A stretch of DNA of 62,712 nucleotides, counting the filler. It is 7 parts of 7 records of this genome, joined end to end, with 100 filler letters (N's around TTAATTAATTAA, not from the genome) between each part and the next. Parts side by side here need not be neighbours in the genome. Positions count along the whole stretch, not along the records: positions 41,535 to 51,615 come from SRR31156797_47529; 6 more parts are not named here. One strand, given 5' to 3'. Made by a program: the position numbers and the translations under genes. Below, piece after piece: positions 33,669 to 51,615 of this stretch. The notes beneath the pieces are model-generated. The model had not been told where the DNA came from. It did no database searches and saw only the letters and a program-made list of their open reading frames with translations. Positions within the stretch are counted from its first letter, which is position 1. Every line of letters starts with the position of its first letter.

Positions 33669-36600
33669 AACCTGATAAATGAAAAGAATGAAGTTCTCTC
33701 CGGCGCCTCCCCCCGGGCTCAGCCATGGGGAACCTTCCCCCCCCTTGCATGTGTAAGTCGGATTCTGGGTAAAGGTTGCACCATCAGAAAGCTGGATTCT
33801 AAAATAACGGGTTTCTCCGGCTGAAGCATTAAACCCGAAAGGCACGGCTTCATTTACCGACTGGTTGTTGCGGTAGAAAGTCGGAGCAGGTAACCATGTA
33901 CAGTCCTCCGTTAGATTCAGCCAGTATCCATGCCATGGCTCTAAATTTACTAAAGAATTGTTTACAGCCCCGGCGGAATAAATATTCCAGGCATTATTTT
34001 TCAATCCCCAAACACTTGAATATTTTCCCTCAATGGAAGCCATCATATCGGCAACAGGTTTGGCTTTCGCTGACAGACAGCCAACCAGGTTCCATCCCGT
34101 AACCAGATCTATAGTCTCGGACGGATTTGTCCCTGCGACTTCAAGTGTCGCGGCAGCACTCATGTTGATCCAGTAACCGGAACCTGCATTCATTGACGAC
34201 AGGTCGCTAAAATTCGGATTCGCGGGATCATAGCTGAGCCAGCCGCCGTTTTCAAAGGCCCATACACTGTAATATTTGCCTGCTATTGAGGTTAGTACCT
34301 TTTCAACGCGGGCATCACCCGGTTGCAATGGCAAAGAAATCAAGTTCCAGCCTTTGGTAAGTTCCGTTTCCGCTGTTCCAATAATGAAGTCCTTACTCAT
34401 GGATAGAGACTTACCCCCGACCGTAACCGTTGCAACGGCAAGGTATTTCCCGCCCTCAAAGTCTTTGGGAATTTCCCAAACAAAAGAGCCGGCCTGAGAA
34501 TCACTCGGAGAGATGGAAAAAACCCTTGGAAGAAAATCAGCTTTTAAGGTGCTCCCTTGATAAATTGTCAGTGCGAAAGAAGCTTGGATATTTTTGTCAG
34601 AAATATTTTCATAGGTTACGCTAAATTCATTTCTGCTTCCAATTTTACAATCGGGAATGTCAATTTTTGTTATATTTCCTGTGTTAACATTTATAAGCTC
34701 TCTTGAGGTTCCAATCGTACTAGTTGAATCGTCTACGGAAGTTTCTACCCAGTAGCCGCCGCTGAGGGAAGGGGCTCTCAACTGAACCGTCTCCTGCACC
34801 ACGGTTGCCGGATCGCACTTGATTGTTGCGGTACTGTTTTGAAGAACCTGGCCGAGATTATCCTTAATCGCTACTGTGACATCAAAAAATGCAGTGGTGT
34901 CAACGATATTCTCCACCTCGAGCAAAACATTGACGGCCTCTCCCGAAGAATAACTCGTCTTTTCCGGTCCAGCGCTTATCAACACGCCTTTGTTGGCTGT
35001 ATCATATTCAATTTCGATCTCAAGATCGCTGTAAAGAGTTGCCTGACCGGTTCTTGTATCATATGCAACCGGAAACAGGTCTAAAACGACAATGAGATTA
35101 TCTTGAGTTGTATATGTGTAATAATCAAACAGACTATCGAACAAGCCAATACGTCCCGGAGCCTCCAGGTAGTCGGCCCAATCGGGATCAATTGAAGGCG
35201 GGGCCGGATTGGGTACCGGAATATTCACAGTTCCGACTTTAATTGGATCGGACTTGGTTAAAGAAATATTTTTTACGGACGATCCGGAAGGCAACGTGAT
35301 GTAATATCTTTTATGGGGCAGGACCGGCGTCTCTCCATCCCTTTCAAAACGGGAATACCCTTCCATGGTAATAAATTCAAATTCACCTTCTGCTTCAATG
35401 AAATAATCAGCTATAGTTTCGGATATTGTTTTTTTTGTGATGTTCTGTACTGACATCACCCGAACGTTTTTCTTTTCTTCAACTTTCTGAAGAGCCATAA
35501 TGGACTGGCTCTTTGGGGATTCATCTTCAGGCGCCGGATATTTATGCCATGGGGTACCATAAAGGACATAAATGGGCGCGCACGCCCTCGTATAATTTGG
35601 TTCAGCATTACCTTTGGCGGCAACCCGTGCGGCTTTTAAACTTTTTCCCAATGTCTCGGGCATAGCGTTGCCATACCCGATAACACTTCGAAAGTAGCTT
35701 TTAAGAAGGTCATTGTTCCTGGAACCATTTGAAACCGTAGTAGCCCCAATAACATCTCTAACATTATTCCTCAAAAGGGAATAAATCATCAAAGATTTTG
35801 CTGAAGATTCACGATCTCTGTCCAGCAAGCCGTTCAAACAGGATATCATCATAAAATGTGACGGATTTGCTCCGAATAAAGCGGATATATTTAATGAAAA
35901 GCCTAATATAGTTAAAGTCCCATCAAAATCCTTACCATCAAATCTGTAACAAGCCTGAGTTTTACTTCCATGACCTCTCCATATGAAATGATCAAACCCA
36001 TTTGCAAATTCCTTTTTTAGATCGGTAAATTGAAATGTGTCTGAATTATATAATTTTTCGCCATTCTTGAGGTTAACTTTATAACCAATTTTTTGTGCAT
36101 CCTTCACGGCCAGTTCCGCAGCTTGAGGGAATCTTAGTTGCTCTGTATTATTTTTGAAATTATAGGCACTGATAATGCAATTTTTAACGGATGTTCTATC
36201 CGTTGTTACAAGTTTTAATGCGCTCAACAATTCCGCTGAGTCCTCACCCACGATTCTTCCGGGATAAATATTCTCAACAGTTCCATTTTTGTAGCCCTTT
36301 CCATCGGTATCTGCATAGATCACATCCGAATATGCTAAAGAATGATCTGCAGCATGCTCGGTATACGTTGACGCATTGTAATGAGAGCTTGGCATAAGCC
36401 CCGGCGGGTCGTTAAAATAATTTGTTGGAAGTCCCTCCAATCGGTAGAATGGAATTATTGAATCCCCGCCAACAATAAGAAGATACCGGTCCTGATTCAA
36501 ACCACCAAGCCTTCCTGCCCAGTAATGGGTGTACTTATCAATGAAAGTACTTATCCTGCTGGCTGTGGCCTCGGAAGTATAATCGATATCAACATCCCTG

Positions 36601-38069
36601 TCCCATTTCTGGTTGCCGGGATCCCAGCCCCACCATTTTATTGGATTGTCATAATATTCTTTTTTGATTGATGTGTCTGTTTCATCGTTGATTCCGGTTC
36701 CGTTTGGATTCAATGAACACCCGTTGCCATCTTTGGCAAAATTATCATACTCATCCCACCAATCCACAAAAAAAACCGAGGCATTTCTGCTATGGGATAT
36801 TTTATATAGCTCCTTCAAAATATTATTTACATTATTCGTATCTGCATGCCTTTTGTATAGAAGATTCCGGTTGGTAAGAATAATATCTCCGGTACGGATC
36901 ATATTCACCGTGAACATATCTTCCTCGGTTGTAAATGAATTCCCTGAAATCTCTGCCGTGACAATAGAGCGTATCGATGTATTTTCATTTTCAGGGATAA
37001 TGACCTTTACAACATATTGATCTGTTTTGGCTTTTTTATTGAATGAAATAGTATCTATGGTTAATTTGCCCTTGGAAAAAATATAGTTTCCCTGCTCAAC
37101 CGGGATTTCATCAGCCGCCATATTCTTTCTTTTTACCACCGGATTATGGTCGACAAGATCCCAGGAACTGGGGAAATTAATTGACAGGCTCCCTGTATGA
37201 TCGCTGTCAGAACCGTTAGTCACTTCTGCGACCAGAAAAGCAATATCGCCGGCAATCTTATTGACATACCTGTCAGCACCTGTTTGGGCATAGGCATCAT
37301 CTATGTAAAGCTGAACTTTGACCTGATCAGATACGGGATTGTTTATTCCTTTGATGGAATCGACCACACCTTTCACCAGATCATCAGTAGGGGTTGTGGA
37401 AACAAACACTTTTCCCCAGCAATAATTGGCCAATTCCTTTGCGCCATTCAATATGCTTTGACTGTAACCGGAACAAACGACCGGAAAAACGGCCACCTGA
37501 TTGTCCTTGGCCGCTTTTTTCGCGCGGCTGATGACCGCAGTGTCTGCAGAATCCCAATTATCCCCATTTTCTGCACCTTCATCGCTCATCGGCATAACAA
37601 TTCTCACATACCCTGATTTCCATCTATATTGATTTGCAATATCTGCAACTGCAGGGCCCCAATCCTCATAATCATCGACTGTCGGACTTGAAACAATGGT
37701 GCTTACAGTATCCGTTGCGCAGTCTCTGGTATTCGTTATGCCCAGTATTTTGGATTCAACATGAATACCGTTATTTTGCAATCCAAGAATGATGTCACCC
37801 ATTTTACTGCACAAAACAGAGAACTCGTCATCCATCGATCCGGACGTGTCCATTAAAAACAGCAGTTCAACATTCGTTTGGTTCAGTATCGTAAGGCCAG
37901 TCCTTTTATTTGTTTCAATTGTGTCCTTGTGGACAACAATCTCATTGGGCGGTTCCCAGTTGTAGGCGTTTCCTTCATCATCTTGAACCATAATGGCTGA
38001 AACAGGCGGAATGAATAAGAAGAAGAAAATAAATGCTAACAATAAAACAACAATCGTTTTTTTAATCAT
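33669..38069 (-). CDS. Large secreted protein: vWA + peptidase C25 (gingipain-like) + C25 propeptide-like + Ig/CARDB + 2 GWNL repeats (3' truncated)
   Basis: Signal peptide; MIDAS DTSGSM; LLIVGGDSIIPF, SDVIYAD, GRIVG, RGHGS, ISCLNG, LYGTP. Confidence 0.75.
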
Positions 38070-38106
38070 AATTGTATTTCTCCATATGGTTTAATGTCTT
38101 TTGCAT

Positions 38107-41100
38107 TTACCGAAAAAAAAGCCAATACCCCCTCCCGGGTTCCATGTTCTCCAAATTACTCAACCCCGGATTTTTAGGATCGTAAACATACCAGTTTCCA
38201 CCCTTGTACCCCCAGATACTATCCACTTCCCCACCAATAAGAGGCAGGGCCTCCTCCAGGGGCATCCCCTGAAGGGAATTACCCCCAACCAAGTTCCAGC
38301 CTTCCTCCAAATTCAAAGCGGAGGAAGGTCTCTGCCCTTGAACCTTAAAATGAAGCCCTTTTTGAATCGTCTTAATCCAATAGCCTCTTCCCGGAGCCAG
38401 TTCCTGCAGATCTCCAAGCCCCGGATTTCGTGGATCATAAATATGCCATGTTCCGCTTTCAAAACTCCACACGCTTTCGATTCCCTGGTTCAGGCCCCCC
38501 AGAACCTGATTGACTTGATTATTGTTAAGTCTTACAGGAAAAGAAATCAGGTTCCATCCTAAATCAAGAGAAAAGGTGAATGATTGTTCCCGGGGGGTAA
38601 AAAGAATTGATTTAACCTCGGTTAATTGCCCGGCTTCATCATATCCGGAAAAATGATACTGACTGCCGTCTCCACGGGAAATACCAATGGTGGAAGACAG
38701 GTTGCTATTCCCTGAACCATAATTGAATTTGATACGGCCATCCTCGTACAGAACAGCTTCCACATTCACAGGCTCACCTGTTTCATATCGTTCTGCGCCC
38801 CACCTAAAGCAGACTGAATCAGAAGAAGGACTGCTGATATAGATATCTTCCCCCTGTTGGGAGAATCCGTTGGTAACCAGGTCTTCCCATAAAGGGGCAA
38901 TCATCGCCCTGTTTTTGAAATTTGCTTCAGAATTTGAATGAGACGCTGAGCCTTGGGTAAAGTCAAGGAATCCGTTTGAACATACATGAACGGTGTCATA
39001 TTCATCCTGAAAGAAAGGAAAAGAAAAGGGAAGCGAATACAGCCAGGATTGGTCATCAGCTTTCCACACCAGGGCCTGTCCTTCACCTTGAAATTCATTA
39101 TCGACCAATGTTTCGTTATACGATTTATGAAGAATGTTGATTTTGACAGCATTACTGATCCCTCTATCCGTTATGATTGTCACTTCACCTGTCCGGGCGC
39201 CTTCAGGAACCCGGCATACAATCCTAGAGTCGCTCCATGAAATTATATCCGCCGTCCTGTCAGGATAGAACCCCACACTGCAGTTTCCCCGGTTGACGCC
39301 AAAACAATCCCCTGTAATCGTAATCTGCTGCCCGCCATAAGCATCAACCTGGCTAAGGGAAAAGATATGGGGAAGATCAAAATTTACTGTCAGCCCCGTA
39401 TACGCATTGATTCTACCGGAAGAACCGCTTTTTCCATGAAGCTCCGGAATAATGTCCAAGGAACGAAGCATTCTGCTTTTAACCTCCAACGGACCGATGG
39501 AAGGGAAATGTGAAAAAAGCAGGGCCGCCACCCCGGCCACATGGGGCACAGCCATAGACGTACCACTCATATTGCAATAGGTATTGTTAAGACCGGTACT
39601 GAGAATGCTGACCCCCGGTGCGGATATGTCAACCCAGTCTCCGTAATTGGAAAAGGATGCGGCCTTGTCCCGGTTGTCAGTGGCGCCTACCGCCATTACA
39701 GCACTAATCCCGGATGCAGCAGGATATAAGAAATCAGATGTATTGTCATTTCCGGCAGCGGCACAAATAAGTGCTCCTTTCTCTGCCGCAAACGCCATGG
39801 CATCTTCAATTAAATTCGATTCTTGGTAATCCCCCCAGCTAAGGTTGACAACCCTGGCACCATTTTCAGCTGCATATATGATGGCGTGGGCGGCATCAAC
39901 GCTTTCCAATGCACCGTCCCCCGATGGCGTTCGGTAACTCGCCCTTACCGGCATAATCATGCAGTTTCTTGCAACACCGGCTATTCCCAAGCTATTGTTG
40001 CTTACGGCGGCTGCAATTCCTGCAATATGAGTCCCATGCCCATGCCTGTCCATTGGATCATTGTCCGGATTTTTATAATCTTCATCCGGGACTCCTCCCT
40101 GGGAATCCACAAAATCCCAACCCAGATGGTCATCAATATAGCCATTGCCATCATCATCCATTCCATTATCCGGAATTTCCCCTGGGTTGTTCCAGATATT
40201 GGCTGCAAGATCTTCATGGGTATAATCCACACCCGTATCAATTACAGCAATGACCACATCTCTTCTGCCTTGTTCAATATCCCATGCTTCAGGTGCATCA
40301 ATATCCCCGTCTCCGGTCCCGTTATGTTGACCTGTATTATTTAAAGCCCATTGTTTGAAGAATTTTGAGTCATCCGGTATGTCTTTTAAAGGAATGATAT
40401 AATTAGGTTCGGCTTTGTCCATAACACCCTGTTGATGAAACCGCTCCATGGCTTCATTCACCGAAAGATGAGGGGGAAGAGAAAGGACATAATAATTGAG
40501 TTGTCTGATCTGCTCTTTCTCGGTTGCACCAATAGAAGCCACCAGGTTGTCTATGATCTGTTTGGAAATAAGTCTCTTAAAACGGATGACCAGTTCACTT
40601 GAAACGAATTCTGATTTTACGCAATCTTTCTTGATTACGTTTTTATTATTGTTAATAGAATCATCGCTGGTGGTATTTGTTCTATTCTTGGTTCTAAATG
40701 TTAGATCTACATCCGGCTTTGTACTGTTTGAAAATTTGCATGCCTTGCTTTCAGCGACAGCTCTTTTAGAGCCCTTGAAAAAAAAGGCTTCCGAAACGTT
40801 GAATCTTTCTTCATTATCATATTTTTCGTATATAAGGGCTCGATTATGGGTCAGTTTTTTTAACGCATCATCCAATGGGAGTTTTTTAAAAGAAAGGGTA
40901 ACTTTTTCTAAGATAGGGGAATTTGAAATTTTTATGTTTGTCTTTTTCGAAATTCCCTTGAGAATATCCCCGACAGCAGCCCCCGTTGCATCAATTGAAA
41001 ACAACTCACCATCTATCGACAGGGTATAAGACTTCTTAATTCCATCTGACAAAGATGTTGAATTCTTAGGGCTTATGGTTTGCGTTGAAGCAGCAACGGA

Positions 41101-41157
41101 TATGCATATGAAACTAATTAAAAAAAATAAAATAATTTTATAACGCAGTTTTGTCAT
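38107..41157 (-). CDS. Secreted S8 subtilase with prodomain, IPT/TIG, nidogen-like domain and 2 GWNL repeats
   Basis: Triad VIDTGVD / HGHGTHIAG / SGTSMA; IISWSDSRIVCRVP (IPT); IAPLWEDL. Confidence 0.9.
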   Translation of the reverse strand: MTKLRYKIILFFLISFICISVAASTQTISPKNSTSLSDGIKKSYTLSIDGELFSIDATGAAVGDILKGISKKTNIKISNSPILEKVTLSFKKLPLDDALKKLTHNRALIYEKYDNEERFNVSEAFFFKGSKRAVAESKACKFSNSTKPDVDLTFRTKNRTNTTSDDSINNNKNVIKKDCVKSEFVSSELVIRFKRLISKQIIDNLVASIGATEKEQIRQLNYYVLSLPPHLSVNEAMERFHQQGVMDKAEPNYIIPLKDIPDDSKFFKQWALNNTGQHNGTGDGDIDAPEAWDIEQGRRDVVIAVIDTGVDYTHEDLAANIWNNPGEIPDNGMDDDGNGYIDDHLGWDFVDSQGGVPDEDYKNPDNDPMDRHGHGTHIAGIAAAVSNNSLGIAGVARNCMIMPVRASYRTPSGDGALESVDAAHAIIYAAENGARVVNLSWGDYQESNLIEDAMAFAAEKGALICAAAGNDNTSDFLYPAASGISAVMAVGATDNRDKAASFSNYGDWVDISAPGVSILSTGLNNTYCNMSGTSMAVPHVAGVAALLFSHFPSIGPLEVKSRMLRSLDIIPELHGKSGSSGRINAYTGLTVNFDLPHIFSLSQVDAYGGQQITITGDCFGVNRGNCSVGFYPDRTADIISWSDSRIVCRVPEGARTGEVTIITDRGISNAVKINILHKSYNETLVDNEFQGEGQALVWKADDQSWLYSLPFSFPFFQDEYDTVHVCSNGFLDFTQGSASHSNSEANFKNRAMIAPLWEDLVTNGFSQQGEDIYISSPSSDSVCFRWGAERYETGEPVNVEAVLYEDGRIKFNYGSGNSNLSSTIGISRGDGSQYHFSGYDEAGQLTEVKSILFTPREQSFTFSLDLGWNLISFPVRLNNNQVNQVLGGLNQGIESVWSFESGTWHIYDPRNPGLGDLQELAPGRGYWIKTIQKGLHFKVQGQRPSSALNLEEGWNLVGGNSLQGMPLEEALPLIGGEVDSIWGYKGGNWYVYDPKNPGLSNLENMEPGRGYWLFFR

Positions 41158-41434
41158 AATGCCGTTACTTGATAAGTAATAGGTGCGTAAAAAAGCACCA
41201 AACGGAATCCGACCATTAAAACAGGCAGTATCAAAACGCCCAAATAGGCGGAACTTTTAGCCAATCAACGATATAGGACATCATTCTTGCCAGGAAGCCT
41301 GAAATACCAACCACATTGCCATTACAGGCTTGAGTTCTGATCCATATTCAGCAATAAAACGGAATGTCATAGCCCGACTATGTAAACCGACGAATGCGGA
41401 TCAGGGCAACCAAGCAAATGATGCTTTGATATGG

Positions 41435-41534: not shown

Positions 41535-42846
41535 CATCAAGGATGCCAAGGGCAATATCAAGGGCGCCCTGGAGTATGTCCTCGATGTGACGGATGAGAT
41601 GAAGCAGAAGCAGGCCGCCGATGAAAAGATTGAAAACCTGAACACCATTCCCACCCCGATCCTCTCCATTGACACGGATTATAATGTTTCGTTCATCAAT
41701 CCGGCCGGAGCGGGCCTGGTGGGCATGACTCCGGATGAGGTGATCGGCCGGAAATGCTACGACCTTTTCAAGACCGAACATTGCCGGACCGATCAATGCG
41801 TGTGCGCCAAAGCCATGAAAACCGACAGCGTCGTTGACGGGCAGACGGTTGCCCACCCGGGTGGAAAGGAGATGCCCATCAAATATACCGGGGCCCCCAT
41901 CAAGGACGCCAAGGGGAACATCAAAGGCGCCCTGGAATATATTGCCGATATCACGGCGGAAAAAGAGGTTGAGCGGCTGATCGCCAATGCCGTCGGCGAA
42001 GTGGACGGCCTGGTGAACGCCTCCAGGGAGCAAATGGGGCAGGCCAACGAGAATGTCGAGAGCATGAACGATATGATCAATCAGGCGGTGAAACAGCTGG
42101 ATGAATCCATGGAAACGGTGCATACCATGCTGAACAGTTCCCAGGAGATGGTGGATCTTTCCCTCGAGTCAAACCGGCTTGCCGGAGACCTTGCCAGGGA
42201 AGCTGAAACCGGAAAGGTGGCCGGCCAGGATGCGGGTCGAAAACTGACCGGCATCAACGAGACCATGGAGAAAAACAACGAGATGGTAAACGGCCTGGTC
42301 AATCAGCTGGAAGAAATTTCCGGCTTTGTGGATATCATCAAGGATATCGCCTCCCAGACCAACCTGCTTGCCTTTAACGCGGCCATCGAGGCCGCACGGG
42401 CAGGGGACGCCGGCCGCGGGTTCGCCGTCGTGGCCGATGAGGTCCGTAAACTTGCGGAAAAAAGCTCCAAATCCGCCATCGACATCTCCACTATCGTGAA
42501 AACGGTGGAGAAGGAATCTCTCCAGACCATCTCCGCCATGCAGGACGGAATGAAAGGGCTTGCCGAGGGCGGAGTGGTCATCAATACCGCCCTTGAATCC
42601 ATGGAAACCATTTCCAAAGGCATTATCACCATCTCCGACTCGGTCAACAAGATGAGTGTAAAAGCCGACGGCCTCAGCGCCGATGGCAAAGAGGTAATGG
42701 AAAAAATCGACCAGGTTTCTTCCTCTTCGAAGAAGAACCAGGAATCGGCCGTGGCGGTCAATCAGACATTGTTCGATACGGCCGAGGCCTTGAACATGCT
42801 GGTTGAATCAAACAAGAACCTCCAGGACGCGGTGAAGAATCTGTAA
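41535..42846 (+). CDS. Multi-PAS methyl-accepting chemotaxis protein (5' truncated)
   Basis: [35 protein letters not shown]; repeated PAS/PAC end [14 protein letters not shown]. Confidence 0.92.
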
Positions 42847-42851
42847 GCGAC

Positions 42852-42887
42852 ACTCCCGGTTGAAGCTTTGGCCTTCAACCGGGAGTT
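42852..42887 (+). terminator. Stem-loop after the MCP gene
   Basis: ACTCCCGGTTGAAG / CTTCAACCGGGAGT 14-bp inverted repeat; no clear U-tract. Confidence 0.6.
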
Positions 42888-42898
42888 CCAGATAATTT

Positions 42899-43462
42899 AT
42901 GACTCTATACGGTAATGAATTTTTTACGCCACGGCTGCGGCTGCGAAGGGTAATGCTCAGGGATATTCCCATGCTTGCGGCCTGGAGCGGCAGCAAGGTT
43001 GCCCATGGTGAATATCTCACCCCCCACGCCATGGATGAGGAGACCGGGTATGCCCAGCTTGAAGCGGGTCTCCTATGGGGCAAGAAGACCAGGACCTTTA
43101 TCATTGATATCCGGGGCGGGACATCCATCGGGTCCATCCATTACTGGCTCAGGCCGGAACGAATGGATTGCGCCGTGGTGGCGCTGAAAATATCGGTGCC
43201 CGGGGCAAGAAGAAAAGGGTATGGAACCGAGGCGCAGAAATATCTCATTATCAACCTGTTTGAACGGCTTAAAATAAACGAAATCCAAATGTATACCGAT
43301 ATCAACAACATTGCCCAGCAGCGCTGCCTGGCAAAGCTTGGCTTTGAACAGGTGGAGTCCCTCACCTACGATGATCACCGGGTGACCCGCCTTGGATTCC
43401 TGTTCAGACTCCGTCGTTCTCAATATCAACAGTCTTCCGTCTACAAATACTATTATGAATAA
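42899..43462 (+). CDS. GNAT acetyltransferase (RimJ/RimL-like)
   Basis: TPRLRLR, RRKGYGTEA, NIAQQRCLAKLGF. Confidence 0.88.
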   Translation: MTLYGNEFFTPRLRLRRVMLRDIPMLAAWSGSKVAHGEYLTPHAMDEETGYAQLEAGLLWGKKTRTFIIDIRGGTSIGSIHYWLRPERMDCAVVALKISVPGARRKGYGTEAQKYLIINLFERLKINEIQMYTDINNIAQQRCLAKLGFEQVESLTYDDHRVTRLGFLFRLRRSQYQQSSVYKYYYE

Positions 43463-44480
43463 CCTCGGTATTCTCATGGATGACCGGTATTTTGATCATG
43501 CCGTCGAACCCCGGTCCCTGGAAAATCCCAAACGCCTCCGCCGGCTTTATCCCCTGATAAAAGAACGGTACGAGGGCGCGTTCACGAGCGTGGTCCCAAG
43601 GGAAGCCTCCTTTGACCAAATAGAGCAGGTCCATTCCAACTTCTACCTCAACCAGGTAAGGGAGCATGCCCTCAAGCCCGACCCGTTTTCCTATGATCGG
43701 GACACCTATTTGATGGACCAGTCCCTTGCCACGGCCCAGCTGGCCGCCGGCGGGTGTCTTGAGATGGCGGACCGGGTGATGGACGGCACCATCCGCAACG
43801 GGTTCGCGTTGATACGGCCCCCCGGCCACCATGCCGAGCCCGGCCGGGGAATGGGATTCTGTGTCCTGAATAATGTCGCCATTACGGCGAAATATCTCCA
43901 GGCCCGCTATCAGCTCAGCCGTATCCTGATCCTTGACTTTGATATTCACCATGGCAACGGCACCCAGGAGGTGTTCTATGATACGGACACGGTCATGTTC
44001 ATCTCCGTCCACCAGAAAGGCTTGTTCCTGTCCAGCGGCACCCCCGGGGAGATCGGGGAAGGCCCGGGCCGGGGGCATACCATAAACATCCCTGTCCACA
44101 GTCTGTTCGGGGATACCGAGTATACCTATCTGTTCGGACAGCTCCTCAACAACGTGGTGGAACAATACATGCCCCAGATCATCCTGGTGTCGGCGGGGTA
44201 TGACGGTCATGAAGCCGACCCCATCAGCGCCACCCTGCTGACCAGCCACTGGTATCACACCGTGACCACCATGATAAAACAATGTGCCCGGGATATCTGT
44301 GACGGCAGGCTGCTCTATCTCCTTGAAGGCGGATATAACCCGACATCACTGGCGGAAGCCGTCCTGGCGACCATCGATAGCCTGCTTGCGCCGAAACAGC
44401 CCCGGGTGGGCATCTTTCATTCCACACGGGCCCAGGCCCTGCTCAATCATCACCCCCTCACTGATTTTTGGACATTGTAA
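43455..44480 (+). CDS. Histone deacetylase family protein (class II / AcuC-like)
   Basis: RPPGHHA, GFC, DFDIHHGNGTQ, SAGYD, LEGGY. Confidence 0.92.
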   Translation: MNNLGILMDDRYFDHAVEPRSLENPKRLRRLYPLIKERYEGAFTSVVPREASFDQIEQVHSNFYLNQVREHALKPDPFSYDRDTYLMDQSLATAQLAAGGCLEMADRVMDGTIRNGFALIRPPGHHAEPGRGMGFCVLNNVAITAKYLQARYQLSRILILDFDIHHGNGTQEVFYDTDTVMFISVHQKGLFLSSGTPGEIGEGPGRGHTINIPVHSLFGDTEYTYLFGQLLNNVVEQYMPQIILVSAGYDGHEADPISATLLTSHWYHTVTTMIKQCARDICDGRLLYLLEGGYNPTSLAEAVLATIDSLLAPKQPRVGIFHSTRAQALLNHHPLTDFWTL

Positions 44481-44492
44481 AAGGAACCCGTC

Positions 44493-44933
44493 ATGACAAA
44501 CCCGGCCCCCGTTGACCATAGTGCGCTCAAGTCCATTTTCCATGAATGCAACCAGTGCGGCACCTGCTGCAAGCAATACCGGAAGATCACCCTCCATGAA
44601 GACGAGGTGGAATTTATTGAAAAAATGGGGGGGCATGTGGGGGTTGATTTGAATTTTACGGAAATCCGGGAAAAGGGCCTGGAACAGGCACGGGCTGATG
44701 CAATGAAAAGCGGCAAGATTTTCATGATTCACCCGGATGACAAGGGCTGTGTGTTTCTTCAGAAGCGGGACGGCAAGTATTGTTGTAAGATATACCATTA
44801 CCGTCCCAGGACCTGCCGGGGATTCAAGTGCAATCTTGCCGACGGGACCTTTCTTTCGCTCTTTGGGCAGGATTCCATGCATCTCCTTGGCCAGAACGCC
44901 TACGGCCTGCCCCTGAAGAACGATAAGGAGTGA
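44493..44933 (+). CDS. YkgJ family cysteine-cluster (CxxCxxCC) protein
   Basis: CNQCGTCC...GCVFL...CKIYHYRPRTCRGF.C. Confidence 0.88.
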   Translation: MTNPAPVDHSALKSIFHECNQCGTCCKQYRKITLHEDEVEFIEKMGGHVGVDLNFTEIREKGLEQARADAMKSGKIFMIHPDDKGCVFLQKRDGKYCCKIYHYRPRTCRGFKCNLADGTFLSLFGQDSMHLLGQNAYGLPLKNDKE

Positions 44934-44940
44934 TTGGGAA

Positions 44941-44990
44941 GATGCCCCCATACGAGCATGTTGTGTTCATATGGGGGCATCTTTGTTTTT
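44941..44990. terminator. Intrinsic terminator between convergent operons
   Basis: GATGCCCCCATA / TATGGGGGCATC inverted repeat followed by TTTGTTTTT. Confidence 0.7.
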
Positions 44991-44997
44991 AAAAAAT

Positions 44998-45309
44998 TCA
45001 ATCTTTGACCACAGGATAGTCCGTGGTGATTTTTTGCCAGTATTTAATATCCGTACCGCCCTTCATGACATCAATGAGCATCCATGTCTCTCCGGTTTTG
45101 GTATTCAGGCGGAACAGCTTCTGCTCCAGAAACTTGGTGGATTGATTTTTCTGAATCAATGCGGAATGATACACCGCATTATACAATACATAATCACCGC
45201 TTCCCTTGGACTGTTGGGGGGGCAGTGTCTTCAGATCCTTTGAAAAGGCCAGGGATCCATTGATTAACAGCCATAAGAAACAGGAGATGCAGCAGATGGT
45301 CTTTTTCAT
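44998..45309 (-). CDS. Small secreted hypothetical protein
   Basis: Signal peptide; LFRLNTKTGETW; last gene of the operon. Confidence 0.65.
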   Translation of the reverse strand: MKKTICCISCFLWLLINGSLAFSKDLKTLPPQQSKGSGDYVLYNAVYHSALIQKNQSTKFLEQKLFRLNTKTGETWMLIDVMKGGTDIKYWQKITTDYPVVKD

Positions 45310-45326
45310 ACAAAATTTCCTATACG

Positions 45327-47339
45327 TTAATTATCCATGATAATTGGCCCCATGACTTTATCGCTTTCACCGGGAGATCCTTTTAACTTATCTTTATCCG
45401 TTGCAAAAATGGAGTATTGATACTCTACGTTTGGTTTCACGTCCGAATCAACATATTCCAATGTTGCGGCGGACACCTCTTTTATTGTTGTCCATCCCAT
45501 ACTGCCCTTTTTTCGCAAAATGGTATAATGCTGAATATCCGGTTCGGGATTCCTTTGCCATTGAAGAACAATCGCATCTTTCCGCCCCTTCACGGAAATC
45601 TCACCGACCTTTTTCGGTACGGGTTTTGTCGTTGCACTGACCTTTTCAGAAAACTTGCCCTCAACCTTGAACAAATTAAACGTCGTTATGGTGTAGATGT
45701 AGGTTGTTCCGTCCTTGATGGCATGAATGACACTGCTTTTATCCTGATAACGCTTTTTTTGAGCCCCGGTCAGCGTTGCGATCTTTTGAAATGTATCTCC
45801 TTCTATTTGCCTGTAAATGGTGTATCCTCCAACATCCGTATCCTGAACGGGTTCCCATGTCAGCTCCACCCTTTTTACCAGCCCGCTCCGGGCCTTAAAA
45901 TTTTCCGGATAATCGATCGGCGCTTTTGTTTTTCCTTGAACCGCCCGGGACGGAGCGGTTTCGCCTTTGCCGTCAAATGCCGTCAATTGATAAAAATAAA
46001 CGGTATCATCAAGATTGTTCTTTGTATCTTGATAGCTGCAAGGCTTGTTGCCGGCAATTCTGCTTATTTTTTGCCAGTCTTCGCCATCTGTTTTTCTGTA
46101 GAGAATATAGGCTTCGGCTTCTTCCACAGGTTGCCATGCAAGATCAATGCGCCTTAGCATATTCTCCTTCACAAGGGTCAGTTCGGGAGAGGCCATGGTG
46201 GTTATTTCAACAGGCGGTGAAAGTTCGCTTTCCACCATTTTTTCATCAACACTGGAAACCGCGTAAAAATACGAAGTATTCTCTTTTAAATCAGATTGAT
46301 CCTCCACCGGGTAATTGTAACCCATGTTTGCGCTTTTTTTGTTTATGGTTTCAAGAAGTTTCCACTCTCCGCCCTTTTCTTTTCTGAACACTTTATAATG
46401 TTTGATCATAAAGTGTTCTTGCTGGTTCAACAGGGACGGTATGAATTCAAACGCCACTCTTTGGGCATACCCCTTTTTTCCCATGATCAGGGGGGGATAG
46501 GGCATGGCCAATGACGTTTTGGTGGCAGAGGCCGGCTTTTCAGTTCGAATTTCTTTGCCCGAAGCCAACAATGCACCAATACGATAAAAATATTCTTTGT
46601 CCTCGGTTACGGTTTCATCGTTGAATTCGGGTTTGGTTGCTTTGCCTATGAACTGGAACGGTCCTGTTGAATTTTCAGAACGATAGACATGATAACCAAC
46701 AATGGTTTCCGCTGAAGGGGTAAGACCCCAGGTTACCAGGATACCCTTTCTGGAGGGTTTTGCACTGACGGTTGAAACGATCTCGGATACCGCAACAGCT
46801 GACTCCGGAACAGCCGCCGGTTTCCCGGCCTCGACAACGCTTTCATCATGTTCCTTGATCACCGAGCCGATCTTCCGGGCCAATTCGGTCATCTGGTCTC
46901 GAATGGCGTTTTTTCCCAGGATATCGACCCCATCATTCAGCACGACTTCGCCGGTACGGAGATCCATTAATTTTAAAATGCAATGAATCACGGTATCGGA
47001 ATCCTTTTTTTCAATGCTGCCGAAGAAAACGTAGCTGACGCCTAAAACTTTCCCGGCCTTTGACACCTGTGATTCATTATCACTCTGTGTGATCCCATGT
47101 TTGAACAGCATCTCCTGCATTTCGCGCCTGGGCATGACAGTGATTGTCCCTTCCCGGGTCAGGGCCGAGATCAAATTATAGATTATTTCACTGTTGTATC
47201 CCATGACATCGATGCTGGCCGCCCGCAAATTAAAAAGGGCAAGGGCGCTTTGTCCCGGGAAAGAACTCGATGCACCCACCGTGTTCATCCACAGGCCGAT
47301 CAGGCAGAAACAGATAAAAGTCCTTTTTATGCACCCCAT
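45327..47339 (-). CDS. Secreted protein with a CsgG/TolB-N-like domain and about 5 fibronectin type III repeats
   Basis: Signal peptide; KAGKVLGVSYVFFGSI...LKLMDLRTGE; repeated L.W...Y.IYR...Y.D...Y.Y. Confidence 0.8.
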   Translation of the reverse strand: MGCIKRTFICFCLIGLWMNTVGASSSFPGQSALALFNLRAASIDVMGYNSEIIYNLISALTREGTITVMPRREMQEMLFKHGITQSDNESQVSKAGKVLGVSYVFFGSIEKKDSDTVIHCILKLMDLRTGEVVLNDGVDILGKNAIRDQMTELARKIGSVIKEHDESVVEAGKPAAVPESAVAVSEIVSTVSAKPSRKGILVTWGLTPSAETIVGYHVYRSENSTGPFQFIGKATKPEFNDETVTEDKEYFYRIGALLASGKEIRTEKPASATKTSLAMPYPPLIMGKKGYAQRVAFEFIPSLLNQQEHFMIKHYKVFRKEKGGEWKLLETINKKSANMGYNYPVEDQSDLKENTSYFYAVSSVDEKMVESELSPPVEITTMASPELTLVKENMLRRIDLAWQPVEEAEAYILYRKTDGEDWQKISRIAGNKPCSYQDTKNNLDDTVYFYQLTAFDGKGETAPSRAVQGKTKAPIDYPENFKARSGLVKRVELTWEPVQDTDVGGYTIYRQIEGDTFQKIATLTGAQKKRYQDKSSVIHAIKDGTTYIYTITTFNLFKVEGKFSEKVSATTKPVPKKVGEISVKGRKDAIVLQWQRNPEPDIQHYTILRKKGSMGWTTIKEVSAATLEYVDSDVKPNVEYQYSIFATDKDKLKGSPGESDKVMGPIIMDN

Positions 47340-47341
47340 GT

Positions 47342-49351
47342 CTATAGTCCTGCGGCTATTCGATAGTTGTAAATGATATCATGAAGTTTCGTTTTTGATT
47401 CAGCGGTTATTGGGGAACCGGAGATCATTTTCATTTTTTCATCAAAAATGGCATTGACATAATTCTCGGCGGCCGCAAGGTCGTTACGGCGTTTCAAGAA
47501 GCTTTCGGCCGTGTCAAAATAGCTCTTTTCCATATATTGGAGCGGGCTTAACGCTTCCCTGCCCAACTCGGCCACGGCCTTATCCGTCAAATCCTGAAGC
47601 AGGTCTATATCGGTGGTGATCTCCAGGGGATCATACTTGATGTTTGCCTCGGCAAGGCCCGCACTGCCTTGGTCCGCAACTTCCTTTTTGATTTCGATGG
47701 TATCCACCTTGATATTCTCACCGGTTGCAACATCAACGATCCTGAAGGACAATTGAACGAATCCGATTTTTTTATGCTGTGACACTTCATAATCTTTTTG
47801 GGTGAAAACATCCTCGATAACCTTGGCTTCAGGGGCCTTTGCCAGCTGTTCTTTTGTCGGCTTCGGATGCTTTGCCTTCCAGTTCAGATAATCGATATTA
47901 TCAATGATTTTTGTCCCGGTCTTATAACTGACGGTTTTTTTACCCTTTGTCAGGTACGATTCCACCTTGTATAAGAGGACACTTCCCATGATGGCCACGT
48001 TAATGCCGTAGACCTTTCCCATTTCCTGAGCGTACTCAGGGTTGACCACACCGACCTGGCCAAGCTTCATCTCTTCCAGTATGGATTTCAGATTTTCTCT
48101 TTCAAGAATCTTGATGTCTTTGCTGGCTGAGTTGAAAAGATAGGTGATCAAATTGTTGGCAACGATAACACCGGCATCTTTGGAATTTGAAGGACTGCCG
48201 AAATCAAACACGGCAATCGCTTTTTTAATCCTGCCATCGATTTCATCCTCCATGGTCTGTATTGAATAGAAAATATCCGGGTAGGAGGAATCGATGCTTT
48301 CAATTTTTTTATACCAATACCATGCGGAACCGAAATTTCCCTGTTCCTTGAGCATGGCGGCGGTATTGCCGGCCAATTGGGAAAGTCGCTGGCGAAGGCT
48401 TACAAGGGGATAACTATTCTTGAACGGGGCGTATTCCAACGCTTTTTCGTAATTTTCAAACCCCTTCAACAGGAGTCCACCATCAATGTTCCGGCCGGCC
48501 GTTTTGAGATAATATTCCGATGCAAGCGTGTAAACCTGATTGTTCAGGTTTTCAAGTTCTTCATTGGCAGGCTCATATTCCCGGGCCCGGTTATAGCAGG
48601 AGATGGCTTCCTCCCATTTTTTCCGGGATGCGGCTGCCGCTCCTTTTCCCAGGAAATATTGAATATTATCCCTTTCCCGGGCAAGCTCAAGGAGCTCCCG
48701 GGACGGGGCATGATCCATGTTCATTGCAAGGGCTTTGTTGGCATTGGCAATGGCTTCACCAATGTTGTCTTTGTCCAGATGGGCCGAGGCGGCCTTGTAA
48801 AAATGGTCCGTCCCCTTCTCCACCGTGGTTGCCATCAGCTGGAAGGTATCCTCATAGGATGGGAACCTGCTTTGCAGTTGCTGGAGTTTGAAGTAAGCGG
48901 CATCCCACTCCTCTGAAGCCATGTTTTGCTTTATTTGCTGATATTCTGCCTGTATTTCACTGTAAAAGTCTGATTCCTTCCTGGTGTATTCTTCTGAAGC
49001 CTTTGTTACCTTGTCGTTTCCCGCATCAATGTCCTGAGCCTTTGACAGAGCGTTTTTTGCCTCTGTCAGGGCGTCGATGGTAATCGGAGACGTGTCCAGA
49101 AGTGTCCTCACTTTTGACAAATTAATGTCAATCTGAGCGTTTTTAAGCTCTGCAAGGGCGGCAATATATTGTTGGTTCTTGGGTTCAAGCTTTATCGCTT
49201 CCTCGAGATAGGCAATGGCATTGCCGTGATTGCCCGCACGATTCAATTGCATTGCTAACTCATAATGTTTTGATCCGGATTGACAACCAACAATAAAAAA
49301 TGTGATCGCACCTGCGAGTATGAGTTTAGCTCCATTAACCTTCCTGCCCAT
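47342..49351 (-). CDS. TPR-repeat lipoprotein with a C-terminal CsgG/HfaB-family domain
   Basis: IVGC lipobox; TPRs; IAVFDF, ILERENLKSILEEMKLGQ.G, SFRIVDVATGE. Confidence 0.82.
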   Translation of the reverse strand: MGRKVNGAKLILAGAITFFIVGCQSGSKHYELAMQLNRAGNHGNAIAYLEEAIKLEPKNQQYIAALAELKNAQIDINLSKVRTLLDTSPITIDALTEAKNALSKAQDIDAGNDKVTKASEEYTRKESDFYSEIQAEYQQIKQNMASEEWDAAYFKLQQLQSRFPSYEDTFQLMATTVEKGTDHFYKAASAHLDKDNIGEAIANANKALAMNMDHAPSRELLELARERDNIQYFLGKGAAAASRKKWEEAISCYNRAREYEPANEELENLNNQVYTLASEYYLKTAGRNIDGGLLLKGFENYEKALEYAPFKNSYPLVSLRQRLSQLAGNTAAMLKEQGNFGSAWYWYKKIESIDSSYPDIFYSIQTMEDEIDGRIKKAIAVFDFGSPSNSKDAGVIVANNLITYLFNSASKDIKILERENLKSILEEMKLGQVGVVNPEYAQEMGKVYGINVAIMGSVLLYKVESYLTKGKKTVSYKTGTKIIDNIDYLNWKAKHPKPTKEQLAKAPEAKVIEDVFTQKDYEVSQHKKIGFVQLSFRIVDVATGENIKVDTIEIKKEVADQGSAGLAEANIKYDPLEITTDIDLLQDLTDKAVAELGREALSPLQYMEKSYFDTAESFLKRRNDLAAAENYVNAIFDEKMKMISGSPITAESKTKLHDIIYNYRIAAGL

Positions 49352-49365
49352 GGGACCTCCAAACG

Positions 49366-50442
49366 CTAGTTTAACATTAATAAAACAATATTGTTTCCCT
49401 TAAGGGTTTCCAACCGTGATTCGAAACCTGCATTGCGAAAATAGGACATCTCAAGTTCCGAGACCAGATGCTCAGGGCGTCCCCGGTACTGCAGGTTGTA
49501 CTCCCCCTTCTTTCCGTCAAACGACAAGAGGGAACATCCCACAACCCCTGAAACATCGGTTTTTAGAATTTCCGGAATTTCAATGGCCCTGGATTGAGAT
49601 TTAACGTTTTTCAACGTAATATAGATATCGCGTTCATTATAAAGCTCTTTTTCATACTGGATCAGCAGCTTATCCCTTAACCCTGTCCAGATGGCATCGA
49701 TGCATTGCCGGGCACCTTTATCGAGGATCGATAGACTGTTTTCTCCCGGAATCGACCGAACCGAGCTTGAAGACGCCAGCACTTCCTGATCGCCAGGCCT
49801 GTACATCTCCGCGGTCACCCCTATTTCATTGAGAGAGATGGACATGCCCTGGTAATCGGAGACTTTTGTGGTTTGTTCAAGGGTAAGCCCTACCAGCAAT
49901 CCGGCTTTTGCCTGGGATTCGTCGGAATATTTCAACACCGTAAAACCTGCCTGCTGAAGTTTGCCCGTCAAAAGATTTACGGTTTTGGCGGCAACCGGCA
50001 GGTATTTTGAATCGGTTCCCGGCTGAATGAAAATGCTGACCCTTGGGTTTCGCTGCCAGCTCAACATCTCTTTGAACCGTTCCAGGTCATTCTTAATGTC
50101 CGCAGATTCAACCTCCGCTTTGATGGTAACTTCCATGGTGCCGAAGTTGCTCTTTTTTTCATCAACCACGGTTACGTTTTTGACATAGCCGGAGGAGTGG
50201 CTGATGATTCTGTCTTCCTGCATCTGATAATTACGGACAACGCTCAATGAGCTGACGTAGCTTCCCATGACCTGCTGAATCGCGGCCCTTTTGGCTTCAT
50301 CTATCGCTTTTTCCCGTGCGACGATTTCTTTGCCTGGTTCAAAGAAACTCATCCCTTTTGCCGTTACCGTTTCCCCAGCCCACAGCGGCTGCGGTGCGAT
50401 CAAGACCATCAGTACTAAAAAACAAAAAGCTCTCATTTTCAC
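49366..50442 (-). CDS. Secreted protein with a FlgT N-terminal-like (LPP20-like) domain
   Basis: VTAKG....AREKAIDEAKRAAIQQVMG.YV.S...V....GYVKN. Confidence 0.75.
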   Translation of the reverse strand: MKMRAFCFLVLMVLIAPQPLWAGETVTAKGMSFFEPGKEIVAREKAIDEAKRAAIQQVMGSYVSSLSVVRNYQMQEDRIISHSSGYVKNVTVVDEKKSNFGTMEVTIKAEVESADIKNDLERFKEMLSWQRNPRVSIFIQPGTDSKYLPVAAKTVNLLTGKLQQAGFTVLKYSDESQAKAGLLVGLTLEQTTKVSDYQGMSISLNEIGVTAEMYRPGDQEVLASSSSVRSIPGENSLSILDKGARQCIDAIWTGLRDKLLIQYEKELYNERDIYITLKNVKSQSRAIEIPEILKTDVSGVVGCSLLSFDGKKGEYNLQYRGRPEHLVSELEMSYFRNAGFESRLETLKGNNIVLLMLN

Positions 50443-50527
50443 CTTGTGTTTTCATGTTTAAAAATCTTCCACGTCCATGGCCAGACGCCATAACGCATAT
50501 CCGCCTTCCCTTTCGGAAAGAGTCCTT

Positions 50528-51274
50528 TCATTCCTCCCCCGCCAAAAGATCCCCGACCCCGTCGATCTGGGAAATGATCCGTTTCGGTTCCCCGCTGTAA
50601 TAGATATCCCCCGCTCCCAGCAATGTCGCGTCGAGCTTTTTTGATGCGAAAACATGGGCGTCGCTTGAGCCGTCTGAGCGAATGGAAACGACCTCTGCCT
50701 TGAATCGGGTTGCATGGAGATCTCCGGCCCCGGAGAAATCAACATTAAAAAGGCGGGTCCTTCCGGTGATACGGAGATCGTTGGATCCCGCCATTTTCAG
50801 AGTAAAACGAGCGTTATCCATGGATTCAACGACGATATCGTTGGCGCCCCGGCAATTGAGTGTGTCAAGGTTGTTCAACTGAATGGTGAGGGTCAATCGG
50901 GATGTCGGACAAATGGATTCCGTGGCCGATATGAACAAACAGCCGTCTGAAACCATGGTCGAAATTTTGGAAACAAGGTTCTCTTCGCAAAGGAGCTTAA
51001 CGGATTGCTCCGGCTGGAATCCGATGTGAAGGTCAAACGCCCCATTGAGATCGATCTTGTCGAAACCGGGGAGATCTCTTTGTGTTTTTGCTGGAATGCC
51101 GTCCCCTACAATGCAAACAGTGTTCTTGTTTGGAGGCGGGTGGCCTGTATCTCGTGTTATTTCAATGGGGTCGTCGTTCATGTTGATGGACATGGCATAA
51201 GCATTGCAATAGAAGGAATAGATAGCCCCAAGAAGTATTAGTAAGATCCCCGACAACCGATTTATCTGTCTCAT
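50528..51274 (-). CDS. DUF2807 / head GIN domain beta-solenoid protein
   Basis: FDKIDLNG; repeated (S/A)G(A/S)(G/N)D(L/I) units; GAGDIYYSGEP. Confidence 0.85.
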   Translation of the reverse strand: MRQINRLSGILLILLGAIYSFYCNAYAMSINMNDDPIEITRDTGHPPPNKNTVCIVGDGIPAKTQRDLPGFDKIDLNGAFDLHIGFQPEQSVKLLCEENLVSKISTMVSDGCLFISATESICPTSRLTLTIQLNNLDTLNCRGANDIVVESMDNARFTLKMAGSNDLRITGRTRLFNVDFSGAGDLHATRFKAEVVSIRSDGSSDAHVFASKKLDATLLGAGDIYYSGEPKRIISQIDGVGDLLAGEE

Positions 51275-51303
51275 GTCGCCTCTTTTCCTTGCTTATTTTT
51301 GTT

Positions 51304-51344
51304 TTAAATCGCAGCGATTTTTATTTGCATTCCTTGCGATTTAA
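51304..51344. promoter_or_regulatory. Inverted repeat in the divergent intergenic region
   Basis: TTAAATCGCA-N21-TGCGATTTAA plus a nested AAATCGC-A-GCGATTT palindrome. Confidence 0.5.
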
Positions 51345-51413
51345 TAGTAGGTAGCACATAGCACAAAATTGGATCAGGAAAAAGTACTAATTAAAAAATG
51401 GGAGGAAAAAGCA

Positions 51414-51615
51414 GTGAAAAAAGTCTTACTGTTAACCGTTATTGGTAGTTTTATTCTGACAAGCTCCGCATTCGCGGATTCATCCGTGAAAGGTGCTGTC
51501 ATTAACAAGTCCAATGTAAAGAATGCCGCCAACATCGCCATTGGTAAAGGCAACAAAGCCAGCATGGGGTCGGTAAAAATTAAAGATTCATCGGTCAAGG
51601 GCGCGGTCATCAACA
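51414..51615 (+). CDS. Secreted 36-aa-repeat protein (Asn/Gly/Ser/Lys-rich), 3' truncated
   Basis: GGAGG RBS, GTG start, signal peptide ending AFA; DSSVKGAVIN recurs at a 108-bp period (51477, 51585). Confidence 0.8.

Follow-up and report, generated by a model that had tools for sequence, protein, structure and literature searches.

A conserved CsgG-superfamily lipoprotein core beside a truncated beta-solenoid repeat gene: one envelope system or two?

A tight row of genes for exported proteins, some with CsgG-like domains, next to a divergent gene for a secreted repeat protein raises the question of whether such a locus specifies a single fibre export machine or brings two separate envelope systems together. 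The locus lies on contig SRR31156797_47529, in a window of 62,712 nucleotides (nt; the whole stretch of DNA analysed, filler included) made of contigs joined by N spacers. GC content differs between these contigs from 0.30 to 0.63, and the window therefore holds several organisms; all genes studied here are on this single contig (Table 1). Calling of open reading frames (ORFs) recovered the five co-oriented minus-strand ORFs and the divergent ORF where an earlier sequence-only reading had placed them. The five are 17, 2, 14 and 85 nt apart, and the divergent intergenic region, put at about 140 bp in that reading, measures 139 nt. The same reading took the five genes as one export and assembly machine for the repeat protein. 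We judge it slightly better than an even chance that the window instead holds two independent envelope modules: Module A, whose central lipoprotein is predicted to form a PelC/FlgT-type ring and likely serves as a scaffold, and Module B, a curli-like operon of which one displaced end is present here and whose likely exporter is another protein, the CsgG-like lipoprotein CsgG2.

Distribution of the core and of the repeat family

Module A comprises an FlgT_N gene (gene 1), a gene for a lipoprotein with TPR repeats and a CsgG-like domain (gene 2), and a gene for a protein with a CsgG-like domain and an Fn3 array (gene 3). Of 8000 candidates scored, at least 369 were relatives of gene 2 (E-value 1e-10 or better); among the matches listed, that from Desulfobacula toluolica (75%) is the closest. 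Loci were read for seven metagenome matches and for the 80 top-ranking genome matches out of 172, a few of these 87 being one contig counted twice (e.g. L006 and L044). Where the contig left room, the FlgT_N gene lay directly upstream of gene 2 in 76/81 loci and the Fn3 gene directly downstream in 78/83. Both partners were in place in 71 of the 77 informative loci, which span Desulfobacterota and 25 Alteromonadales. Module A is a conserved three-gene core common to sulfate reducers and marine bacteria. Gene 3 homologues are longer in Alteromonadales, at 934-1269 amino acids (aa), than in the window (670 aa). The gene for the 103-aa protein was present in 10/87 loci. DUF2807 was found in four of the 87, each time downstream, on the opposite strand and belonging to Module B; it goes with the repeat operon and not with the core. 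Atlas look-ups returned unnamed clusters only.

Irregular loci were also seen. Frameshifts, through assembly errors or decay, break the Module A genes of Desulfothermus okinawensis (L083:6089-11277) into many pieces, and in L007 gene 2 is split. The core of L024 is in an archaeon-labelled bin that also has a repeat gene; the contig is probably misbinned, because its protein clusters with Desulfobacterota.

The repeat family was present in 16 of the 80 Module A genomes and in none of the 25 from Alteromonadales, so that 64/80 carried the core without a match. A repeat lay within 10 kb of the core at one of the 87 loci, and the arrangement of the window recurred in 0/65 loci with at least 3.5 kb of upstream sequence. 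Four essentially complete core genomes yielded neither repeat nor CsgG2 in a search whose positive control matched; the Fn3 gene was found in 0/5 repeat genomes tested, here with no positive control. Across a phylum sample of 401 genomes, strong repeat matches occurred in three, CsgG2 in five (including those three) and gene 2 in 23, and the seed genome was the sole overlap between gene 2 and repeat genomes. These counts leave out fourteen weak repeat matches (E-value 9e-8 or worse), among which that in G232 adjoins a divergent CsgG2, and those in G029, G163 and G347 are frames of 843-865 aa in core-carrying genomes. In the order samples, gene 2 was found in 42/401 genomes and the repeat in 19/251, 11 of the 19 being without gene 2. 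The two order samples appear nested, and no close genome of the lineage of the window is among them. The view of the five genes as one export machine did not withstand this comparison, and obligate coupling of Modules A and B is not supported.

The core lipoprotein and the genes around it

Pfam agreed with the domain assignments of the sequence-only reading, with CsgG matches that were partial or weak. Gene 2 matched TPR repeats and CsgG (1.4e-9), the latter limited to profile positions 33-103 of 210. Gene 3 matched Fn3 (4e-13) and, weakly, LpoB (1e-3) and CsgG (6.5e-3). Gene 1 matched FlgT_N (4.6e-8), and LipL46 of NCBIfam (NF033164) at 1.3e-9, under the family cut-off. The 248-aa protein matched DUF2807 at 1.6e-31, and no Pfam family was found for the 103-aa protein. 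The lipobox cysteine of gene 2, Cys23, was identical in 80/80 aligned homologues; signal peptides other than this were assessed by eye.

The structure model of gene 2 (predicted local distance difference test, pLDDT, 86; predicted template modelling score, pTM, 0.56) consists of a TPR stalk (residues 26-375), an alpha/beta domain (376-605) and C-terminal helices. The alpha/beta domain has a CsgG-type core fold (Foldseek match to CsgG, 4uv2, E-value 4.6e-5). From it extends a single hairpin with strands of 33 and 31 residues (452-484 and 510-540) and a conserved helix-loop-helix tip, about 45 residues more than CsgG has at its hairpin 1; hairpin length and tip are preserved in Alteromonadales homologues. 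CsgG has two hairpins per subunit, and no regular second hairpin was present in the gene 2 model. Via realignment, the domain matched PelC (Z 14.8, root-mean-square deviation (rmsd) 2.0, 115 residues aligned) and FlgT, which according to its PDB titles forms a ring in the polar flagellar motor (Z 14.7, rmsd 2.8, 147 aligned), ahead of CsgG (Z 12.6, rmsd 4.5, 164 aligned), with TolB-N and GNA1162 near CsgG. The best 60 of 81 matches in a PDB sequence search with gene 2 were to TPR proteins only. The IxDxTG constriction-loop motif was not found in gene 2 (consensus IAVFDFSSP), and a stalk of about 350 residues parts Cys23 from the domain. As modelled, gene 2 is a lipoprotein nearer to PelC and FlgT, which are rings but not channels, than to CsgG.

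Four copies of residues 368-606 gave a complex score of 0.56, compared with 0.00 for the best control. In calibration this mark was attained by 21/30 solved pairs and 0/23 single chains. Runs shared at least 73% of contacts, with pLDDT of at least 71, and were made without a custom alignment. One copy met two neighbours via different faces in a ring-like manner. The CsgG-like domain of gene 2 is thereby predicted to self-associate head to tail. Of the ring oligomer with membrane-spanning hairpins that the sequence-only reading proposed to test for, self-association is predicted, and the model shows one long, helix-tipped hairpin per subunit instead of the two of CsgG.

The genes that adjoin the core differ between lineages. 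An MltC-like lytic transglycosylase was near the core in 24/25 Alteromonadales loci, an MlaE-like gene in 13/25 (6/55 other loci), an MlaD-like gene also in 13/25 (4/55 others; 17/80 in all within 10 kb) and a GNA1162/beta-helix lipoprotein in 12/25 (9/55 others). Among the 55 Desulfobacterota-type loci, CHASE2-family genes were near the core in 15, a TPR-SLH lipoprotein in 11 and FecR in nine, FecR being absent from all 25 Alteromonadales loci. LPP20 proteins recur as neighbours. A flagellar role was considered and rejected, no flagellar genes being conserved around the core. The lytic transglycosylase and the MlaE/F/D-like neighbours suggest wall remodelling or opening and lipid transport as the process served by Module A.

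These features could be combined as follows. The invariant Cys23 would hold gene 2 by a lipid anchor, and the TPR stalk of the model would keep the alpha/beta domain off that anchor. The domains may close into a ring, presumably in the periplasm, whose long hairpins would interlock as a stalk through the predicted contacts. Because synteny is strict, the three proteins are taken to co-assemble, the FlgT_N protein as a peptidoglycan-facing subunit and the Fn3-array protein as a spacer. Such a ring would likely act as a scaffold that couples the outer membrane to the wall, helped by a transglycosylase or an MCE transporter, while the wall is opened or lipid is moved.

The repeat family and its own CsgG-like gene

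The divergent ORF begins with GTG and encodes about 1.3 repeat units before the contig edge. In the probable source run, five repeat fragments of 32-122 nt match the contig end, as does a 14,216-nt contig with the repeat at its beginning and of similar depth (88 vs 98). Since these overlie the contig end, the assembly probably broke within the repeat, and the gene would continue past the edge. The 67-residue fragment matches the full-length L036 protein at 62% and the repeat-family profile with an E-value of 4e-24. As a query by itself it found no relatives; a full-length relative of 272 aa came from one locus, via synteny. When the source-run contigs were compared with the operon of a relative (80% likeness), the matches listed at CsgG2 comprised a 5.7-kb contig of depth 14 and not the 14,216-nt contig, which says little on whether the latter carries CsgG2. 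Membership of DUF6488 or ExtJ was rejected, matches being confined to the level of the signal peptide.

A library-wide search returned 157 representatives at an E-value of 0.001 or better, the weakest of which include unrelated pentapeptide-type proteins. The unit is 36 residues long (146 units counted) and rich in Ala, Val, Gly and Asn, with 3.5% Gln. Among 75 repeat proteins scanned, no Pfam family matched within the repeat and there was no curlin match. The repeat has no QX10Q motif, and NQQ, a feature of Fap, occurred 0 times in 19,213 residues. The model (pLDDT 91) is an uncapped beta-solenoid, all-beta between signal peptide and C-terminus, with generic beta-helix structures as its structural matches (best Z 15.7, rmsd 3.8). 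Foldseek returned nothing at an E-value of 0.001 or better for this model, and PDB sequence searches gave no significant match for the repeat or for CsgG2. The repeat family is an unannotated secreted beta-solenoid family, which bears out the view of the divergent protein as a member of a secreted beta-repeat family.

In 22 of 31 repeat-positive genomes, tallied by hand, the repeat gene is followed by a gene for a secreted protein of about 110 aa and then by that for CsgG2, a lipoprotein of about 460 aa. Of the other nine, four end at contig edges and three have a single match typical of a FecR fusion (one of these was read); in one the operon is without CsgG2, and in another there is no operon close by. 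LPP20, a gene of about 99 aa, DUF2807 (15/22 operons) and HtrA often come after CsgG2. CsgG2 can be aligned to Escherichia coli CsgG (P 9e-4) over a stretch that starts at the lipobox and takes in the IxDxTG and EIP motifs. Its members matched Pfam CsgG in 10/24 cases (best 9.7e-5) and PG_binding_1 in 12/24, at E-values up to 1, and four strands with a hydrophobic face are consistent, at the sequence level, with two amphipathic hairpins. The 110-aa protein aligned with CsgF at a 12-column N-x-x-F motif alone (P 0.43) and ends in a single degenerate repeat (P 0.0065). The 103-aa protein of the window and the 99-aa gene product are distantly related (hhalign P 9.4e-5).

By analogy with curli, CsgG2 is likely the fibre exporter of the repeat family. 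Unfolded repeat subunits would traverse a channel with two hairpins per subunit and stack on a small nucleator to form a beta-solenoid fibre. The link once drawn between the repeat protein and a CsgG-like export gene thus survives with CsgG2 in place of gene 2. The repeat family is paired with a CsgG-like gene of its own, distinct from gene 2. The fibre idea suits the repeat family, but gene 2 was probably the wrong choice of exporter. CsgG2 was not found in this window. Plasmids searched held no CsgG2 and one weak, unrelated repeat match.

Variants of the operon were observed at several loci. At L115:6822-12932 and L227:513-7849 it is followed by another FlgT_N and CsgG-like gene cluster, not related to Module A; by these two cases, the repeat operon repeatedly adjoins clusters of this kind. 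L122:9703-18810 and L126 hold a divergent CsgG2, small proteins and a degenerate repeat beside an ABC/FtsX fusion, an FGE-sulfatase and a glycine-zipper lipoprotein, a cluster that we take to be reminiscent of TagQRST. The operon at L191:2-2346 lacks CsgG2, has a split LPP20 gene and is possibly decaying.

The repeat also occurs in fusions and apart from the operon. FecR-domain proteins with two or three C-terminal repeats made up 13 of the 75 scanned (including P0128 and P0148), and their gene directly precedes an apolipoprotein N-acyltransferase-like gene at L121:1872-2822, L187:8751-9857, L188:9401-10465, L190:8900-9847 and L193:10142-11095. Such a fusion may be a sensor templated by, or docking on, the fibre subunit. 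Two of the 75 carry subtilase and one DUF2807, and two more had unrelated matches; these fusions (P0133, P0145 and P0152), N-terminal with the subtilase proteases and C-terminal with DUF2807 (P0152), suggest display of cargo on the fibre. In three genomes, repeat proteins of 685-902 aa (L240:5125-7833, L241:12620-14677 and L242:4686-6743) are convergent with an adenylate/guanylate cyclase-AAA-TPR gene, away from the export operon.

No sigma-70 consensus was found in the intergenic region of the window, where a promoter scan was at chance (12 vs 10.4). On another contig of the window (33669-41434), a secreted subtilase of 1016 aa and a secreted protein of more than 1470 aa have C-terminal repeats of the GWNLISxP...YWI type in common, as judged by eye, which suggests a common surface-sorting domain.

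Table 1. Features of the contig under study, in window coordinates
Feature	Position	Strand	Basis or remark
Contig carrying all features	41535..51615		10,081-nt record, N spacers either side
Small exported protein, 103 aa	44998..45309	-	Module A accessory in 10/87 loci
Module A gene 3: exported CsgG/LpoB/FlgO-like domain and Fn3 array, 670 aa	45327..47339	-	Pfam, synteny
Module A gene 2: lipoprotein, 669 aa	47342..49351	-	Pfam, lipobox, structure model
Gene 2 CsgG-superfamily domain, residues 376-605	47537..48226	-	Structural alignment, complex prediction
Gene 2 very long beta-hairpin with helix-loop-helix tip	47732..47998	-	Model
Module A gene 1: exported FlgT_N/LPP20-domain protein, 358 aa, LipL46-like	49366..50442	-	Pfam, NCBIfam NF033164, synteny
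DUF2807 beta-solenoid protein, 248 aa	50528..51274	-	Pfam 1.6e-31
Divergent intergenic region, 139 nt	51275..51413		Between DUF2807 gene and repeat gene
5' fragment, 67 aa, of secreted 36-residue-repeat beta-solenoid protein	51414..51615	+	Ends at contig edge

Alternative readings and known systems

Several observations weigh against two independent modules, or against a scaffold role for Module A. Within the order, the modules co-occur above chance, in 7/18 repeat genomes (odds ratio about 5, P 0.003-0.004, nested samples assumed); the co-occurrence label is clustered by clade, with 5 changes vs 15.7 when shuffled (quick tree, 85 rows). Two separate lineages have the modules side by side, in different arrangements: in G001, G438 and probably G432 and G428, and, otherwise arranged, in the window, which falls in a separate well-supported clade. 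CsgG2 has not yet been seen in the organism of the window, and most genomes searched were incomplete. The MltC-family transglycosylase was near the core in 0/55 Desulfobacterota-type loci. The complex score may reflect memory of solved CsgG, PelC and FlgT rings, and was obtained with four copies, from which the calibration differed. The distal hairpin face is moderately hydrophobic (mean hydropathy 1.1-1.4), like CsgG strands, so that a membrane-spanning barrel is conceivable, but the hydrophobic residues sit in predicted subunit contacts. Common ancestry of, or a loose functional tie between, Modules A and B is possible.

Unlikely in our estimate, and the best-surviving alternative, is that Module A is a trans-envelope conduit, in which one hairpin per subunit would contribute to an extended beta-barrel through the wall or outer membrane, carrying lipid or protein, possibly as outer partner of an MCE transporter. 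The length of the strands, the contact between hairpins of adjacent copies in the predicted complex and the hydrophobic face V474-Y476-V478-T480-I482 are as expected for a barrel; the charged helix-loop-helix tip, the place of the hydrophobic tip residues in predicted subunit contacts and the lack of a second regular hairpin are not. Hairpin length and tip are kept across two phyla, in both of which MlaE/F/D-like genes adjoin the core, and ring lipoproteins of the same fold serve MCE systems, according to excerpts of PMC13631591; MlaD-like genes, though, were near the core at just the minority of loci given above. We would give a similarly low chance to the boldest form of this idea, that Module A represents a new class of CsgG-superfamily machine. 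Here a TPR-suspended ring would have its single 30-residue hairpins zipped into a long barrel across the wall or outer membrane. FlgT-like proteins, Fn3-array proteins and a lytic transglycosylase dedicated to it would complete the machine, which would be the trans-envelope conduit of an MCE transporter. It would have been recruited twice beside the 36-residue beta-solenoid fibre system in some Desulfobacterales.

It is more doubtful still that Module A is a surface adhesin or receptor with its Fn3 array outside, or an input to FecR/CHASE2 signalling, and no wall scaffold. The array differs in length between lineages and FecR or CHASE2-family genes accompany some Desulfobacterota-type loci, but none of the genes conserved with the core is for an outer-membrane barrel or for surface transport, and Alteromonadales loci have peptidoglycan enzymes where FecR is absent. 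The single export machine, for which the divergent arrangement, the Module B affinities of the DUF2807 and 103-aa proteins, the adjacency and enrichment just described and the predicted gene 2 oligomer would speak, is very improbable, being largely refuted by co-occurrence and countered by the CsgG-like gene of the repeat operon itself.

The two-module reading can be set against known systems. In excerpts of PMC13631591 and PMC12141448, PelC is a ring lipoprotein on the periplasmic face of the outer membrane, partnered by a TPR scaffold; in Module A the TPR stalk is instead fused to the ring domain. The PelC dodecamer and Vibrio FlgT are the top structural matches of the gene 2 domain, and gene 1 has an FlgT_N domain. 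Unlike either, Module A has the very long extra hairpin, an Fn3-array partner and no conserved pel or flagellar genes nearby. PelC and PqiC-like rings have no membrane-spanning segments, and CsgG has four strands per subunit (excerpts of PMC13631591). PqiC and PA3214 share the alpha/beta superfamily, form rings and are MCE-adjacent (same excerpts), as MlaE/F/D-like genes are found beside Module A. Gene 2, however, has 669 aa and TPRs, MCE genes occur in a minority of loci, and PqiC was not among the structural matches listed for gene 2.

Module B resembles curli in its secreted, Asn-rich, uncapped beta-solenoid subunits, and in the gene just ahead of that for a CsgG-like lipoprotein with two putative amphipathic hairpins, which encodes a small secreted protein ending in one degenerate repeat. 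In curli, the CsgF N-terminus binds CsgG and its C-terminus anchors the nucleator (excerpts of PMC12822426). Module B differs from curli in its Gln-poor 36-residue repeat without QX10Q (about 22 residues in curlin), in the peptidoglycan-binding domain of its putative channel and in its LPP20, DUF2807 and HtrA accessories; CsgE was not found. Module A, for its part, has neither the N-terminal motifs of CsgG nor its second hairpin. Pseudomonas Fap (FapC/FapB) is similar in repeat length and in conserved Asn and Gly, and differs in that the repeat has no NQQ and no sequence match to solved structures. No Fap-type transporter was recognised in the repeat operons, which were not searched with Fap profiles.

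In a 2012 survey, 171/601 Pfam CsgG matches were true curli genes (excerpts of PMC3521004); CsgG paralogues like gene 2 are to be expected, since this is about a quarter. Among the non-curli matches, Module A provides a strictly syntenic example across two phyla, with a predicted oligomer of unusual shape. Searches of the openly accessible literature listed no publication on either module, and Module A with its long-hairpin architecture appears undescribed. Its hosts in culture include Pseudoalteromonas, Catenovulum, Desulfovibrio and Desulfobacula, and it is open to direct testing. For the repeat family, also fused to FecR sensors and proteases, the analysis reassigns the likely exporter to CsgG2. 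The family is a candidate for a new type of bacterial fibre, as CsgG2 is for a new nanopore.

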